Source: Nitrospirota bacterium (GTDB taxonomy: Bacteria > Nitrospirota > Thermodesulfovibrionia > Thermodesulfovibrionales > Dissulfurispiraceae). From it: a DNA stretch of 24,358 bases. Made by a program: the position numbers. Shown here one piece after another: positions 3,001 through 9,000 of the stretch. The stretch spans positions 1-24,358 of the forward strand of contig JBFMCP010000040.1 of NCBI GenBank assembly GCA_040754455.1, given 5' to 3'. Positions within the stretch are counted from its first letter, which is position 1. The number at the start of each line of letters is the position of its first letter.

Positions 3001-6000
3001 GCACCGGCGCCCTTTTGCCTGGCGCATGACTGAAGACCCCTATCGTATTCTTGTTTCAGAGATCATGCTCCAGCAGACACAGACCGAAAGGGTCAGGGAG
3101 AAATACGAGCAATTCATTACCGCCTTTCCGAGTTTCAGGGCACTCGCCAGAGCGCCGCTGCAGAAGGTGCTCAGCGTATGGCAGGGCATGGGGTATAACC
3201 GCCGCGCCATCGCCTTAAAGGAGCTTGCCGACGTCGTGGTCAGGGAGTATAAGGGGAAGCTCCCTTCCACTCACGATGAGTTGCGGAAGCTCCCCGGCGT
3301 CGGCCCCTATACGGCATCGGCGATTGCGGCTTTTGCCTTCAATCAGCCTGTGCTCCTGATCGAAACCAATATCAGAACAGTGTTTATCCATCTCTTCTTT
3401 CAAGACCGGGATGAGGTAACCGACAGAGAGATTCTCCCCCTGATCGAGCTGACGCTCGATGTCGCCAATCCCCGAATATGGTACAACGCCCTGATGGATT
3501 ACGGTGCGATGCTGAAGAAATATCACCAGAATCCTGGCAGGAGAAGCGCACACTATAAACGGCAGACGCCCTTCGAGGGATCGGACCGCCAGATGCGCGG
3601 CGCGCTCCTGAAGGTGATTATCGAACATCCCGGGATTTCGGAACAGAAAATTATACAGATGGTTGATGCTCCAAGAGAAAGGCTCAAGCAAAATCTCAAC
3701 AAGCTGCGGGAAGAGGGCTTCATCAAACGGCAGGGCAGAAGACTGACTGTTGCCTAATCCTCTGCCAGTCCGTGCTTCTTTAACTTTCTCCAGAGCGACA
3801 CCCGGTCGATGCCGAGAATCTGTGCCGCCAGGGTCTTGTTGCCGCCCACCTCATTCATCACCCACTGAATATAGGCAATTTCCTGATCTTCAAGGGAAGG
3901 GATCTTGCCGTCCTTCTTTCTGAAGGTCTTTATATTCAGTTCCCGCAGGTCTTCGGGGAGATGGGCGATCTCGATCGAAGCGCCGTTCGAGAGGGCAACG
4001 CCCCGCTCAATGATATTTTCGAGCTCACGCACATTGCCGGGGAAGTCATAGTTCATAAGCAGTGAGAGTACGTCCGGAGATATTTCTGCGATAGACTTGT
4101 TCATGAGCGCTGCATACTTTTTGAGGAAATAATAGCTGAGCACCGGTATATCCTCTCTCCGTTCAGAAAGAGGGGGGATGTGGAGGGAAACGACATTCAG
4201 CCTGAAGTAGAGGTCCTGCCTGAAATGCCCGCTCCGCAGCGCATCATGGATATCCCGGTTGGTTGCGGCGATAAACCGCACATCCACCCGGGCCGGTTTT
4301 GTCGCCCCTACTCTCAGGACCTCCTTTTCCTGAATTACCCTGAGGAGCTTCACCTGCATGGGAGAGGGCATCTCGGTGATCTCGTCGAGGAAGAGGGTCC
4401 CTCCGGAGGCCATCTCGATCAATCCCTTCTTCAAGGTGGTCGCGCCGGTAAAGGCGCCTTTCTCGTGGCCGAAGAGCTCGTTTGAGAGCAATTCTTCGGT
4501 GAAGGCACCGCAGTTGATTGCAAGGTAGGGACCTTCGGAGCGCTTGCTGTTGAAGTGGATATATTTTGCGAAGAGCTCCTTGCCGGTGCCGCTTTCACCG
4601 CTGATCAGGACATTGCAGTCCGTCGGCGCAATCTGGCGCGCGGTATCGAGGAGCTGCTGCATCCGTGGATCCTGGGTGATGATCTTCACCTTTCCCTGGT
4701 ATGCCTCGATCTGGGCTCTGAGCTGGCTGTTCTCTCTCCTGAGGCGGACCTTCTCGAACGCCTCCCGCACTACCTTCCTCACCTCATCGAGCTTGAAGGG
4801 CTTCGCGATATAGTAGAAGGCACCGTGCTTCATGGCATCGACGGCGGATTGCAGCGTGGCGTATCCGGTGATCATGATGATCTCGGTATCGGGATGGAGC
4901 TCACGGCTTTTCTTGAGAATCTGCATGCCGTCCACCTTTTCCATCTTCAGGTCGGTCAGCACTACATCGAACTGCTGCTCCTCGAGCAGTTTGAGGGCGT
5001 TCTGGCCGCTCTGTGTTCCGGTGACGGTATATCCCTCTTTCTTCATCACATGCTCGAGATTCTTGAGCGCTATCTTTTCATCATCGACAATCAATATTCT
5101 GGCATGGTTCTGCATTGCTTAACTCCTCTCGTGCTGTTTCGGCAGAGGCAGCCGTATGAGAAAGACCGTTCCTTTTCCGACCTCGCTGTCGACGGCGATG
5201 CAGCCGTCATGTTCCTCTATAATTTCATGGACAATGGAAAGGCCCAGTCCCGATCCCTTTCCGACATCCTTGGTCGTGAAAAAAGGATCGAATACCTTCG
5301 GCAGCAGTTCGGGAGGAATACCTGCTCCCGTATCCCGTATCTCGATATCAACCGTATCGTCCTCGACGGTGCACTTCCCGTGGTACTTCAGATAATTGTA
5401 GATCTCCGGCCCGTTCTCCTCGATCTTGTCGATCGCCCGGCGCCGCTTGGCGCTGATGAATATTTTCCCTTCATCGTGAATCGCCTCGAGGGCATTTTTG
5501 ATCAGGTTCAGAAAGACCTGCTGTATCCGCTGCTTGTCGGCGAAAATGAAGATATAATCGGGAACAGCGACAGTTATTTCCACTTTCGCCGGTATCTGCC
5601 CCTTGATGAAGCGCAGGGTCTCCTCGATGAGCTTTTTCAGCGGAAGCATCTCCTTACGGAAATCCTGCTTCCTCGAAAATTCGAGAAGGGAACGGACAAT
5701 GTTCCGTGCCCGGTCGGTCTGCTCATTGATCTGCGCGAGGAGCTCTTTTTTGTATTCTATATCATTTTCTTCGATCTCCTCGGAGAGAATCTGAGAGGAG
5801 GTCGATATGTTTGAAAGAGGGTTATTGAGCTCATGGGCGACGCCGGAAAGGAGGGTGCCGAGGGAAGCGAGCTTTTCGGATTGTATAAGGTGCCGCTGCC
5901 GCAGCTCGAGCTCTTTCAGCATTTTGTTGAAGGCGTTGGTCAGTGAAATGATCTCCCGGTCTTTCGAATCGATCCGGATTTTTTCGAACCTGCCGTCGGC

Positions 6001-9000
6001 AATAATCTCCATACTCTCTTCGAGCCGCTTGAGCGGCCTCACTACGATTCTCGACAGCACCTGACCGATGACAATTCCCAGAAAGGAGAGGGCAAGAATG
6101 GAGAGAATGAGTGTGCTCTGTGAATTGGCCAGAAGCACCTGGAGGTTTCTCCGTTCGGCCTTTGCAATTTCTTCGGCGATGTTCACAATGTCCTTTCCGA
6201 TCACGCGTATCTTCCCCTCCAGGATTTCGCGTTGTGCCCACGCCTGTTTGTCGAGCGCTGCATATGCCTCGATGAGCTTTTTGTATTCACCGAGGTCGTA
6301 CTGCAGTGTGCTGATCTGGAAGGACGTGGCAATGGTATAAAATTCCTTGCTGTTGCGGGCGAGCGATTCCTGTGCTGTGGTGATGTAGTGTATGTTCTCC
6401 TGATAATCCGATTCCTGGCCATAGAGGAAATAATTCTTTTCAAATCGCCTGATCTCGAGCGCGGTGTTGAAAAACTCGGCAACCGCCTCACCCGACATGA
6501 CCTTTTTTTCGACAGACCTGAGCTCCATGAAGTTGAAGATGGCGAGCCCGACGATAATAATAACAATGGCATAGTAGCCGAGGATGATCTTTTGCCTGAT
6601 GCTCGAGTAGTAGAGAAAGCGCCTGAACATACTTCATTGTAAACAGTAACTATTGCAAAAAGCAACAATGACTGTTCACACGGTGCCTTCACTCGTTTTT
6701 AAGAGAGGACAGTGCTGCGGGCAGGATTACTTGGTGAGCACTGTGTCGATTACCTCGTCCAGATAATCGGTGAAGTGAATGGTCATTCCTTTTTTCATCT
6801 CCCCGGTCAATTCCTCGAGGTCGGGTCTGTTCCTGGAAGGCAGGATGACGGCCTTTATCCCTGCGCGCCGGGCTGCCGCGAGCTTTTCCCGTATGCCGCT
6901 GACCTGAAGCACTCTTCCGGTAAGGGTTATCTCGCCGGTCATGGCGACGTCCCTGCGGGCGGGCCTGTTGGTGAGGAGTGAAATGAGCGCCATGGCAATG
7001 GTAATCCCTGCGGAAGGGCCGTCCTTCTGGATAGTGCCGGACGGGACATGAATATGGATATCGTGGTGCTCAAAGAAGTCTTCAGGGATGCCGAACACGG
7101 CAGCATTGCTCCGCACATAGCTGAGGGCGGCCTGTGCGGACTCCCTCATCACTTCACCGAGCGAGCCGGTCAGAATAAGCTCTTTTCTGCCTTTCATCCG
7201 CGCCGCCTCGACAAAGATGATATCTCCTCCGGTCTCGGTTAGCACCAGCCCGGTCGTAACGCCGACCCGGTCATGTTCTCCAGCAGTTTCGTAATGGTAG
7301 AGGGGACGCCCCAGATAGTGCTCAATGAGAGCAGGGGTGATGACCAGAGGTTTTGACTGCCCGCTGCTGGCAGCGCGGTCCTGAACGATCTCCTTTGCCG
7401 TCTTTCTGAAGATGGCGGCGATCTTTCGCTCGAGATTTCTGGTTCCCGACTCATGCGTATACTCCTGAATTATTTTGTAGAGCACCTCCTCGGTAAATTC
7501 AGGAGCATAACCGCATAATCCCTTATCGTTGAGCTGCCGCGGGATAATGAACTGCGAGGCTATGTGCACCTTCTCTTCAGGGGTATAGCCGCTGAATTCG
7601 ATCACCTCCATGCGATCCCTGAGCGGGGCCGGTATGCTCTCGACCGTGTTTGAAGTGAGAATGAACATCACCTCCGAGAGGTCGAAGGGAACGTCGAGAT
7701 AGTGATCGACAAAGCTGCGGTTCTGTTCGGGGTCCAGCACCTCCAGCAGCGCCGACGCCGGGTCTCCCTTGAAGTCATGGCCTATCTTGTCCAGCTCATC
7801 AAGCATGATGACAGGGTTGGAGGACCCCACGCGGCGTATTTCTTCGATAATCCTTCCGGGCTTTGCGCCTACATAGGTGCGGCGGTGCCCCCGTATCTCC
7901 GCCTCGTCCCTCATCCCGCCCAGCGCGATCCGTACGAAATGCCTCCCCAGGGCTTTTGCAACGGTTCTCCCCATTGAGGTCTTTCCTGTCCCCGGCGGGC
8001 CGGCAAAACAGAGTACCGAGCTGTGTGTTGTGCTCATCATCACGCGGTTCTCAAGCGCCTGTTTGACGGCGGCACGTACCTCCTCGAGCTTGAAAGGCTT
8101 TGCGATATACGAGAAGGCGCCCTTTTTCATAGCTTCCACTGCAGAGGGAACGGTGGCATATCCGGTGATCATGATCACCCGGGTGTCCGGCTGTTGTGCG
8201 CGAATGTTCTCAAGGACCTCCATGCCGTCCACGCCGGGCATCTTGAGGTCGGTGATAATGACATCAAAGCGGGTGGTGCGAAGCTTGTTCAAGGCATCGG
8301 TGCCATCCGTTGCGACCGCCACCTCGTAGTTTTCCCGAGCCAGTATATGGGTCAGGTTCTTTCTCGCGATCTCTTCATCGTCGACAACAAGAATACGCGG
8401 CGGCGTATCCAGTTTGAGGATTTTTACGGCGAGATGTTCGAGAATCCTCTCTTTAACGCTCGTGAGGCCGTAGTGACTCTCCGTCATTATATTCTCTGCG
8501 CGCCTGAGATCGAGGTTGTCCTCGGTTTTCTTGTTCCACGGCAAAGTAACAAGGTAATCGATATACGTAAAGCCGATCGTGTACTCTGCGGTTGAGGGGC
8601 TGATTTTAGAGAGGGTCTCGAGTTCCTGAAGGGCAATGCTCTCTACGGAGGAAGGCATCCGTACCGCGATGATCTTCTGCCTGAGCTCCTCCAGGGCCTC
8701 ATCGTGTAGCTCTCCCTCTGATTTTTTGAAGAATCCCATCGCTGCAGTAATTTACCATAATGTGGAATCTGTGTGGAAGCTAAGGAAGTATGCCTGTTAT
8801 AATATGTTGTTGCATATTGAAACATCGCACCCCTTTCTGCATCGCTCAGGATTTCTCTTAAAATTCAACGCATAAAATCATAGTGCGCTATGGCAGTTGC
8901 AGAATGCAACGAAAAGGTGCCGACGGTACCTACATTTTTTCGAAAATATACTAATAAATTCAACGCGATGCTGGAAAGGGCTGTTCTGGCACGGAACATG

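Follow-up and report, generated by a model that had tools for sequence, protein, structure and literature searches.

What a response-regulator receiver does inside a Lon protease, and what might switch it, is the question raised by one gene in the 24,358-nucleotide stretch of Nitrospirota DNA analysed here (hereafter, the window). The gene and the parts of its product, which we call REC-Lon, are as follows.

6727–8739, minus strand: the REC-Lon gene (P0001), of the DVU3303 type, an open reading frame of 670 aa with an ATG start, identified with Pfam and NCBIfam
8407–8739, minus strand: N-terminal helical region, aa 1–111, from LonA alignments and the predicted structure
8035–8397, minus strand: inserted receiver (REC), aa 115–235, with phospho-acceptor D164, from Response_reg and conserved residues
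7360–8022, minus strand: AAA+ module, aa 240–460, from the AAA and Lon_lid matches and conserved residues
6733–7341, minus strand: S16 protease domain, aa 467–669, with a Ser576/Lys619 dyad, from Lon_C and conserved residues

The preliminary description of this locus had called the protein a LonA-type protease without the LON substrate-recognition domain, and both statements hold. REC-Lon scored 726.2 bits against TIGR00763 (curated cut-off 608.05, NCBIfam), and LON_substr_bdg was absent from its 10 Pfam families at E ≤ 0.01. The Pfam matches (Lon_C, 3.4e-81, aa 467–669; Response_reg, 1.8e-34, aa 116–226; AAA, 1.4e-25, aa 243–383; Lon_lid, 6e-17, aa 407–455) gave E-values close to those first reported, with slight differences within the same order of magnitude. 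The canonical LonA and the LonC that had been noted elsewhere in the genome were also recovered: the former, with 840 aa (contig C47), has LON_substr_bdg at 2.3e-54, and contig C19 encodes a LonC-like protein (843 aa).

Alignment with LonA structures located the insertion. Residues 14–108 of REC-Lon align with residues 249–343 of Thermus thermophilus Lon (7p6u) and residues 239–668 with 352–775, so that the receiver takes the place of a loop of some eight residues. The start of REC-Lon corresponds to approximately residue 249 of 7p6u, and residues 16–108 align with 10–102 of 3m6a. The predicted structure, for which LonA structures were the best structural matches, has N-terminal helices at 8–25, 30–45, 51–64, 70–75, 78–86, and 93–111. 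These alignments and helices agree with the earlier remark that ~110 helical residues before the ATPase were retained, and residues 1–111 correspond to the helical bundle found ahead of the AAA+ fold in LonA, together with the helix immediately before it. In the model, helix 93–111 leads through 3 residues to strand 115–119, the first strand of the receiver, and receiver helix 218–236 leads through 5 residues to strand 242–246. The receiver thus sits between the pre-AAA+ helix and the Walker-A strand; the model, with a pTM of 0.51, does not fix where it lies with respect to the ring. An insertion ahead of the AAA+ module, as first described, is borne out (Response_reg 116–226, AAA from 243). 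The wording that the receiver stands in place of the N-domain was right about the loss of that domain but not about position, as the insertion lies ~100 residues further on.

Residues expected of a working receiver, motor and protease were conserved. Among 27 sequences (66–71% identity), D120, D121, D164, T192, K214, and Y211 of the receiver were invariant, and the first five also showed no variation when 26 sequences were aligned over their N-terminal 250 residues. GPPGTGKT (G247–T254), D314/E315, Y289, N364, and R376 were likewise invariant in the 27 sequences; the first three are the Walker A motif, the Walker B motif, and the pore-loop tyrosine of the AAA+ module. The protease dyad, S576 (within DGPSAG) and K619, did not vary in these sequences either.

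All 120 best relatives of residues 1–240 (one 99% identical, the others 60–69%) carry PF00072 and PF00004, as had been reported, and the relatives noticed without Lon_C were P0038 and P0052, both fragments of 473–475 aa. Within the genome, the N-terminal region of REC-Lon is 45% identical to residues 259–354 of the canonical LonA, and the match rises to 55% identity across the AAA+ and protease modules. When 20 REC-Lons were compared with 12 LonAs from the same genomes, one branch separated them (SH-aLRT 100). REC-Lons are one clade apart from canonical LonA, found in Nitrospirota and Desulfobacterota; the family is common in the latter too, and the Nitrospirota-only distribution given initially does not stand. 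With the present query, the module was patchy (64/401 genomes of the phylum) and was not found in the only other genome of the same genus. Cultured carriers of the family include Desulfobacter vibrioformis DSM 8776, Maridesulfovibrio sp. FT414, Desulfocurvibacter africanus, and Desulfobacca acetoxidans.

Two signalling genes follow REC-Lon on the same strand, as the preliminary description stated.

5119–6630, minus strand: membrane HAMP histidine kinase, 503 aa (Pfam HAMP, HisKA, and HATPase_c)
3754–5115, minus strand: sigma-54 response regulator, 453 aa, counterpart of DVU3305 (Pfam Response_reg, Sigma54_activat, and HTH_8)

The kinase is the likely phosphodonor, and its sensor region (aa 36–171) had no Pfam match at E ≤ 5. 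The translated regulator contains GAFTGA, and rpoN was found in the genome. We surveyed linkage in 48 REC-Lon loci from the two phyla, counting a kinase orthologue at ≥35% identity. The kinase was present in 33/48, the sigma-54 regulator in 32/48, both in 28/48, and TauE in 34/48, with gene orientations that vary among the loci. Orthologues of the regulator were 68–85% identical in Nitrospirota loci and 49–59% in Desulfobacterota loci. Within the DNA fetched around each locus, an orthologous kinase was missing in 15/48, and of the first 19 loci 4 had neither partner, although many loci stop at a contig end.

The novelty that the preliminary description implied for this fusion does not hold, as published work already describes such a fusion and puts forward the same hypothesis. 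Rajeev et al. 2011 (PMC3333781) describe a three-component stress system of Desulfovibrio vulgaris made up of DVU3303, a response regulator said to be "containing a lon protease", together with DVU3304 and DVU3305. They propose that phosphorylation is needed for DVU3303 protease activity, already note Thermodesulfovibrio orthologues, and name UspA and membrane targets; the DVU3305 motif is given in supplementary file 1 (Tables S7/S9). In the published accounts, DVU3303–3305 is among the targets listed for the system's own regulator, and Kazakov et al. 2015 (PMC4641369) also treats the system. Trotter et al. 2023 (PMC10102598) report pairwise cofitness >0.9 across the three genes, DVU3303 to DVU3305, and a fitness pattern of protease-gene mutants like that of kinase and regulator mutants, not opposite to it. 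Such cofitness of the operon's first gene with two downstream genes could reflect polar insertions. The literature searches made turned up no biochemical data on such receiver-Lon proteins. P0001 would be the Nitrospirota counterpart of DVU3303; the grounds for this orthology are gene context, the motif common to both, homologues from Desulfovibrionaceae (47–50% identity), and the published Thermodesulfovibrio statement.

The receiver itself resembles that of the neighbouring regulator. The two are 59% identical (68/116) and share a near-identical alpha4-beta5-alpha5 sequence. Among 68 receiver matches in the genome, the partner regulator ranked first (137.8 bits vs. 125.9 for the second), and the next-best receiver was 53% identical. 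A quick tree with 99 rows set the REC-Lon and partner receivers (84 rows) apart from 15 other receivers of the genome (SH-aLRT 94). The best NCBIfam receiver match was AtoC (1.5e-32), and the nearest natural receiver structures among PDB matches were those of NtrC1 (1zy2/1ny5, ~1e-22). The REC-Lon receiver is the closest paralogue of the partner's receiver. This likeness, together with the grouping in the tree and the missing substrate-binding N-domain, could also suggest that the receiver is a substrate-docking module that replaces the N-domain, pairing with the regulator's receiver or with the kinase and delivering that protein for degradation as feedback. Receiver proteins are among the known substrates of Lon, FixT being one example. 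We nevertheless regard docking as unlikely: NtrC-type receivers of this genome often resemble one another closely, and destruction of the regulator predicts opposite mutant phenotypes, whereas cofitness is >0.9 in PMC10102598, subject to the polarity caveat.

Upstream of REC-Lon lies a divergent operon, and the intergenic sequence of this region contains candidate regulatory sites.

9046–11997, plus strand: divergent operon, counterpart of DVU3302–3298, from translations and Pfam
8896–8910, no strand assigned: palindrome GTTGCAGAATGCAAC, 0 mismatches to the DVU3305 motif core, GTTGC-N5-GCAAC
8809–8823, no strand assigned: second copy of the palindrome, 1 mismatch
6652–6666, no strand assigned: third copy, in the gap from the REC-Lon stop codon to the start of the kinase gene, 1 mismatch, a putative site
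8987–9002, plus strand: predicted sigma-54-like promoter TGGCACGGAACATGAT, 2 mismatches to TGGCAC-N5-TTGCW

The operon encodes a small ORF (58 aa), the Usp-like p159, the 2-TM p83, a TauE/SafE anion exporter, and a tandem Usp (at 10034–11997, plus strand, Pfam gave TauE at 2.9e-35 and tandem Usp at 9.3e-66). The 58-aa protein and p159 share a conserved N-terminal FAE-x-GEF...AR..LKE segment. The window contains 4 palindrome matches where 0.64 were expected, and site pairs ~87 bp apart recur in relatives. Across relatives, the palindrome was present in 32/49 upstream regions (54 sites), compared with 1/49 and 0/49 coding controls. On the opposite strand to REC-Lon, 27/49 loci carried a sigma-54-like element (vs. 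5/49 and 2/49 coding controls); on the REC-Lon strand it was no commoner than in controls (3/49 vs. 4/49 and 2/49), and within the window none was found upstream of REC-Lon on its strand, which sits uneasily with the published listing of DVU3303–3305 among the targets of its regulator. The predicted sigma-54 promoter faces the divergent operon and not the protease gene. Both Nitrospirota and Desulfobacterota retain the cluster of eight genes together with its motifs.

These patterns bear on whether the receiver is a structural relic in a constitutive housekeeping Lon paralogue or chaperone, with the kinase serving the sigma-54 regulator only. A protease gene for which no sigma-54 promoter was found, and REC-Lon loci that have no adjoining kinase, would suit such an arrangement. 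It is very improbable, however, given that the five phospho-chemistry residues are invariant in both the 27-sequence and the 26-sequence N-terminal alignments and that linkage to kinase and regulator persists through gene rearrangement in two phyla.

Taken as a whole, the explanation that we favour, and hold to be reasonably probable, is a DVU3303-type REC-Lon that shares a kinase with the sigma-54 regulator and whose proteolysis is activated by phosphorylation. REC-Lon is a LonA paralogue that has lost its globular N-domain and long helix, kept the helical bundle, AAA+ motor, and Ser-Lys protease, and gained a receiver within the loop leading into the Walker-A strand. The sequence analysis establishes this architecture, the intact catalytic and acceptor residues, and the conservation of gene linkage and DNA motifs, whereas phosphotransfer from this kinase, an effect on activity, the sign of that effect, and the substrates are what we infer. 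The HAMP kinase probably phosphorylates two receivers, that of the sigma-54 regulator and that of REC-Lon at D164. The regulator would bind the GTTGC-N5-GCAAC sites and turn on the divergent TauE/Usp operon from its sigma-54 promoter. Phosphorylation of REC-Lon would most likely alter ATPase activity or ring assembly, because the receiver linkers are only 3 and 5 residues long, and so turn proteolysis on. Switching by phosphotransfer fits the invariant receiver residues, the kinase linkage in two phyla, and the receiver paralogy.

The direction of the effect is a closer matter, with activation only slightly favoured over inhibition. In relatives that combine a receiver with an AAA+ module, the unphosphorylated receiver can keep the module off in some proteins and on in others (NtrC1 and DctD vs. 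NtrC), and the sign is not fixed by the present sequence evidence. The same architecture and kinase could serve a protease that phosphorylation turns off, or a receiver that acts mainly as a phosphate sink and tunes flow to the sigma-54 regulator. Two receivers with near-identical alpha4-beta5-alpha5 at one kinase locus, and NtrC1 structures (1ny5, 1zy2) as the nearest natural matches, are in keeping with this possibility, to which we give a minor but appreciable chance. For a pure sink, neither motor nor protease would have to be intact, but the Walker motifs, Y289, and S576/K619 show no variation. Moreover, D. vulgaris protease mutants share the fitness pattern of the kinase and regulator mutants in PMC10102598, although polarity could explain this.

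If REC-Lon is activated by phosphorylation as we favour, it would be a natural AAA+ protease gated by aspartyl phosphorylation, and a receiver within the Lon motor would give a direct output from signal to degradation. Two-component control of proteolysis is known mostly via separate adaptors (RssB, CpdR). A more speculative extension, which we consider unlikely, is a self-contained "induce and degrade" circuit in which one kinase switches on both the sigma-54 operon and, via the receiver it carries, a dedicated protease, with the first products of the operon, the 58-aa protein and p159, as candidate substrates or adaptors and their FAE-x-GEF...AR..LKE segment as a degron or docking tag. If true, two-component signalling would here feed straight into proteolysis through a dedicated tag system. 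Many anaerobes of the sulfur cycle carry the family, among them cultured and tractable species such as D. vulgaris, and the window gains a confident annotation of an eight-gene stress module with predicted binding sites and promoter. To the known DVU3303 system, our analysis adds the separate clade, the receiver paralogy, cluster and motif conservation in two phyla, and the orientation of the promoter.

Compared with DVU3303–3305, the locus shares a Lon-containing response regulator whose gene accompanies those of a kinase and a sigma-54 regulator (on one strand here), a divergent operon with UspA-type, hypothetical, and membrane (anion transporter) proteins, and a motif core in the shared intergenic region (GTTGCGATATGCAAC in D. 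vulgaris, GTTGCAGAATGCAAC here). It differs in phylum, with Desulfovibrionaceae REC-Lons 47–50% identical over their full length yet in the same clade, and DVU3305 is listed with GAFSGA whereas the regulator here has GAFTGA. Like canonical LonA (7p6u, 3m6a, 6u5z), REC-Lon passes the TIGR00763 cut-off and keeps the helical bundle, AAA+ module, and protease, but it is without ~250 N-terminal residues, including LON_substr_bdg and the long helix, and has a ~120-residue receiver before the Walker-A strand. With NtrC1/AtoC activators it shares the receiver type and a receiver directly upstream of the AAA+ P-loop strand. Its AAA+ module is, however, a Lon unfoldase joined to a protease and not a sigma-54 activator, and its linker is ~5 residues rather than the coiled coil that joins receiver and AAA+ in NtrC1. 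Aspartyl phosphorylation of a receiver controls degradation through RssB and CpdR, which are separate adaptors for ClpXP, and controls a fused hydrolase in CheB, in which the receiver is fused to a methylesterase; in REC-Lon, by contrast, the receiver forms part of the motor of the protease itself.

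REC-Lon (P0001) is a Lon protease with an inserted receiver whose predicted phospho-acceptor is D164. Its gene leads a minus-strand row that continues, as the preliminary description had it, with a HAMP histidine kinase (P0002) and a sigma-54 response regulator (P0003), and a plus-strand operon diverges from it:

3754-5115 (-), regulator P0003, 453 aa; receiver, sigma-54 activator and HTH_8 (Pfam), with a GAFTGA loop in the translation
5119-6630 (-), kinase P0002, 503 aa; HAMP-HisKA-HATPase_c (Pfam)
6727-8739 (-), REC-Lon P0001, 670 aa, first of three consecutive minus-strand genes; Pfam Response_reg aa 116-226 (1.8e-34), AAA aa 243-383 (1.4e-25), Lon_lid aa 407-455 (6e-17), Lon_C aa 467-669 (3.4e-81)
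9046-9222 (+), small ORF, 58 aa (translation)
9256-9735 (+), p159, Usp-like, 159 aa (Usp E 6e-4, short of the cut-off)
9781-10032 (+), p83, two hydrophobic segments (judged by eye)
10034-11125 (+), TauE/SafE anion exporter (Pfam)
11128-11997 (+), tandem Usp (Pfam)

P0001 had been described as a LonA-type protease that lacks the LON domain, and this holds: it scored 726.2 bits against the NCBIfam model TIGR00763 (endopeptidase La; cut-off 608.05) in two stretches, and LON_substr_bdg was absent from its Pfam matches (10 families, E<=0.01). The helices ahead of the ATPase are also kept. Structure-sequence alignment paired T. thermophilus Lon (7p6u) 249-343 with P0001 14-108 and 352-775 with 239-668, B. 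subtilis 3m6a split P0001 identically, and the LonA of the same genome aligned at 45% identity (259-354 vs. P0001 14-109) and 55% identity (335-781 vs. 216-668). From these alignments, P0001 starts with the helical bundle preceding the AAA+ fold, and the LonA alignments place the CheY-like receiver, as claimed between helices and AAA+, where LonA has a loop of ~8 residues from the helix "VKERILEHLAV" to the Walker-A strand. The canonical LonA (840 aa; LON_substr_bdg 2.3e-54) and the LonC-like protein (843 aa) noted elsewhere in the genome were both recovered, and ComM and RadA are likewise encoded.

The AlphaFold model of P0001 (mean pLDDT 75.7) has confident individual domains and, at a pTM of 0.51, was read for domains and linkers and not for relative domain placement. 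Helix 93-111 is joined to receiver strand 115-119 by a linker of ~3 residues, and receiver helix 218-236 to AAA+ strand 242-246 by ~5 residues. The top Foldseek matches of the model were all LonA (4ypl, 6u5z, 7ksm and others; E 1e-50 to 1e-43). In a 27-member family alignment (66-71% identical to P0001), receiver residues D120, D121, D164, T192, K214 and Y211, AAA+ residues 247-254 (Walker A), D314/E315, Y289, N364 and R376, and protease residues S576 and K619 were invariant. Judged by these residues, P0001 looks like a fully competent receiver, motor and protease, and at the level of sequence the earlier interpretation of REC-Lon is supported. We also observed that BLAST carries the AAA+ alignment with the genome's own LonA backwards into the receiver (P0001 216-241 vs. 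LonA 335-360), laying the last receiver helix FKLEEVRAAVKQALE... on the LonA pre-Walker-A helix YDLEKVKERILEYLS... with equal linker lengths in the two proteins. This overlay may be chance.

With regard to distribution, 64 of the 401 sampled genomes of the phylum, including that of the window, gave a match spanning the N-terminal helices, receiver and Walker A. The tally by family at E<=1e-40, which includes a few receiver-only matches, was patchy (38/64 in family f25, 9/14 in f9, 0/75 in f29), and the one other sampled genome of the same genus gave no REC-Lon match with this query. Receiver and AAA families were found in all 120 of the best relatives of residues 1-240, as the preliminary description reported. 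A species scan (one genome per species; query, an alignment of residues 1-250) detected the architecture outside Nitrospirota, at 42-51% identity over residues 1-250 and 47-57% over the full length. Among the named records are Desulfobacter vibrioformis DSM 8776 and Maridesulfovibrio sp. FT414, as well as MAGs of Syntrophobacter, Desulfobulbus, Desulfomonilaceae and Desulfovibrionaceae. A protein search seeded from one Desulfovibrionaceae member showed receiver and AAA in 120/120 of the matches listed, with Lon_C throughout these save for a few short fragments; Desulfocurvibacter africanus, Desulfobacca acetoxidans and Thermodesulforhabdus norvegica are represented among them. In a library of representatives at 50% identity, a continuous match from helices through receiver to AAA+ occurred in only a few dozen clusters, reaching down to 36-49% identity.

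Twelve long multi-stretch matches in this library were considered as further receiver-Lon fusions and rejected, as Pfam found a receiver in 0/12; 11/12 are Lons with two or three AAA+ modules and Lon_C, and the twelfth (P0177) has one AAA stretch and gave no Lon_C match at the threshold applied. The 11 receiver-free multi-AAA+ Lons (P0142, P0158, P0159, P0170, P0175, P0176, P0209, P0211, P0227, P0244 and P0263; 889-1379 aa) carry the modules ahead of Lon_C, some with LON_substr_bdg or ankyrin repeats. Short relatives with N-terminal helices and receiver were also seen (P0147 and P0149, 377-382 aa; G350:C11:7565-8200(-), open frame 382 aa). Response_reg is their sole Pfam family at E<=1e-6, and they may be truncated or protease-less copies.

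To place the AAA+-protease part, a quick IQ-TREE run (no bootstrap) was made with 20 REC-Lons and 12 canonical LonAs (from genomes G000, G062 and G200 and those of loci L067, L104 and L080). One branch with SH-aLRT 100 splits the REC-Lons from the LonAs, and the REC-Lons form Nitrospirota (support 93) and Desulfobacterota (92) sub-clades. The tree is consistent with the fusion having arisen once.

We compared gene neighbourhoods at 51 related loci (20 from the phylum, 31 from the species scan), of which 48 hold a full REC-Lon ORF; L054 and L060 are one contig, and contig ends truncate L050, L064 and L069. The counts are lower bounds because many loci stop at a contig end.

Genes found by REC-Lon at the 48 loci (lower bounds).
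Kinase orthologue (>=35% identity): at least 33/48
Sigma-54 regulator orthologue (>=48% identity): at least 32/48
Kinase and sigma-54 regulator both: at least 28/48
TauE orthologue (>=55% identity): at least 34/48
p83 homologue: at least 35/48

Most Nitrospirota loci have Lon, kinase and regulator in this order on one strand, and at many Desulfobacterota loci the kinase-regulator pair is convergent or a few kb upstream. That the linkage outlasts rearrangement argues for a shared function. Among Nitrospirota, the regulator is more conserved (68-85% identity) than the protease (59-69%) and the kinase (45-72%).

The receivers of P0001 and P0003 share 59% identity (68/116). Of the genome's 68 receiver matches (E<=1e-10), that of P0003 ranked first (137.8 bits, 58% identity), ahead of a runner-up at 125.9 bits and 53% identity to the P0001 receiver. 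A quick tree search (99 sequences, 123 columns; 49 REC-Lon, 35 partner-regulator and 15 other NtrC-type receivers), with many unresolved forks and outgroups solely from this genome, clustered the REC-Lon and partner-regulator receivers apart from the other NtrC-type receivers (SH-aLRT 94). The tree fits, suggestively, an origin of the REC-Lon receiver as a copy of the partner regulator's own, retained under the same kinase. A Pfam search of the P0002 sensor region at E<=5 returned no family. At L039 of a close relative (G388), the ORF after the kinase (3357-3827(-)) has just 156 aa and matches the sigma-54 regulator over its receiver part at 71% identity; the regulator may be truncated or frameshifted there.

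In the divergent operon, the 58-aa ORF and the p159 N-terminus have in common the conserved segment A-x-x-F-A-E-E/A-G-E-F-x-x-A-R-x-x-L-K-E, and p159 orthologues across Nitrospirota carry it as well. Additional small ORFs with this segment lie ahead of p159 at seven related loci, among them L038, L039 (two copies), L046, L055, L058 and L079, and in Desulfobacterota (L071, L077, L080) a related segment precedes a Usp-like domain. As speculation from sequence, the segment could be a tag or docking segment for a Lon without a substrate-binding domain. The p83 homologue is longer (238-309 aa) and opens with a Usp-like domain at many loci of Desulfobacterota and at one of Nitrospirota (L066, L069, L072, L074-L076, L078, L081, L082, L084-L086, L048), so that p159 and p83 appear to be fused there.

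The intergenic region shared by the two operons contains the DVU3305-type palindrome core GTTGC-N5-GCAAC (DVU3305 being the sigma-54 regulator of Desulfovibrio vulgaris Hildenborough) exactly at 8896-8910 and with one mismatch at 8809-8823. A third copy, ATTGCAAAAAGCAAC at 6652-6666 (1 mismatch), falls after the stop codon of REC-Lon and ahead of the start codon of the kinase and could be an internal regulatory site; the window has 4 matches vs. 0.64 expected. A sigma-54-like element, TGGCACGGAACATGAT, stands at 8987-9002(+), 44 bases ahead of the small ORF, and the genome encodes rpoN.

Motifs upstream of REC-Lon at the 48 loci and in the window (49 regions; at most 1 mismatch) and in two equal-length coding controls.
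Palindrome: upstream of REC-Lon 32/49 (54 sites); controls 1/49, 0/49
TGGCAC-N5-TTG, strand opposite REC-Lon: upstream 27/49; controls 5/49, 2/49
TGGCAC-N5-TTG, REC-Lon strand: upstream 3/49; controls 4/49, 2/49

The opposite-strand enrichment over the controls suggests that a conserved predicted sigma-54 promoter drives the divergent operon. On REC-Lon's own strand, a consensus scan of the window found no such promoter upstream (8 matches vs. 10.5 expected), and across the 49 regions the same-strand element was as frequent as in the coding controls. A sigma-70 and terminator scan of 3400-9400 remained at chance level.

The remaining window features (12073-16135(-), 16530-18221(+), 18291-20074(-), 20529-21962(+), 22480-23175(+); Pfam) comprise a NiFe-hydrogenase-like cluster (large subunit, Oxidored_q6 small subunit, NAD-binding/Fe-S subunit, Fer4_22 protein), a hybrid-cluster (prismane) protein, a rhodanese adjoining a multihaem cytochrome, a DegP/HtrA-type protease and a Crp-family regulator.

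Literature queries in general wording yielded nothing on a receiver-Lon fusion, and no biochemical study was found among the records listed. Rajeev et al. 2011 (PMC3333781) report that the genes of the D. vulgaris three-component system DVU3303-3305, with the Lon-type regulator DVU3303, are up at high pH, in heat shock and in stationary phase, with orthologues in Thermodesulfovibrio yellowstonii among others, in most cases with the Lon-protease regulator present and the binding site conserved. Entries in its supplement give the motif GTTGCGATATGCAAC at -89 of DVU3303 and annotate DVU3303 as "ATP-dependent protease La, truncation"; the same DVU3305 targets are tabulated by Kazakov et al. 2015 (PMC4641369). 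For the DVU3303:DVU3305 genes, Trotter et al. 2023 (PMC10102598) report pairwise cofitness >0.9 and a detrimental effect in chlorate, and name the target DVU3299 as a putative anion transporter. A Lon protease of this kind, predicted to depend on phosphorylation and to belong to a three-component stress system, has been published before, orthologues in Nitrospirota included.

We propose that the HAMP kinase P0002 would phosphorylate the receivers of both P0001 and P0003, and that phosphorylated P0003 would then activate the TauE/Usp operon. Phosphorylation of D164 would probably alter ATPase activity or ring assembly of REC-Lon, given that the receiver is held by very short linkers at the strand entering the P-loop. 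We lean only slightly towards activation rather than inhibition of the protease, on account of the published suggestion and the equal fitness patterns. Cofitness does not settle the sign of the effect, as an insertion in the leading gene of an operon may have polar effects on the two genes behind it.

Like DVU3303-3305, the window has a divergent TauE/Usp operon and DVU3305-type palindromes in the shared intergenic region. It differs from the published target list, which puts both operons under one shared binding peak, in that a predicted sigma-54 promoter was seen for the divergent operon only and not for the protease operon. The REC-Lon gene of the window is a further member of the DVU3303-type family in print.
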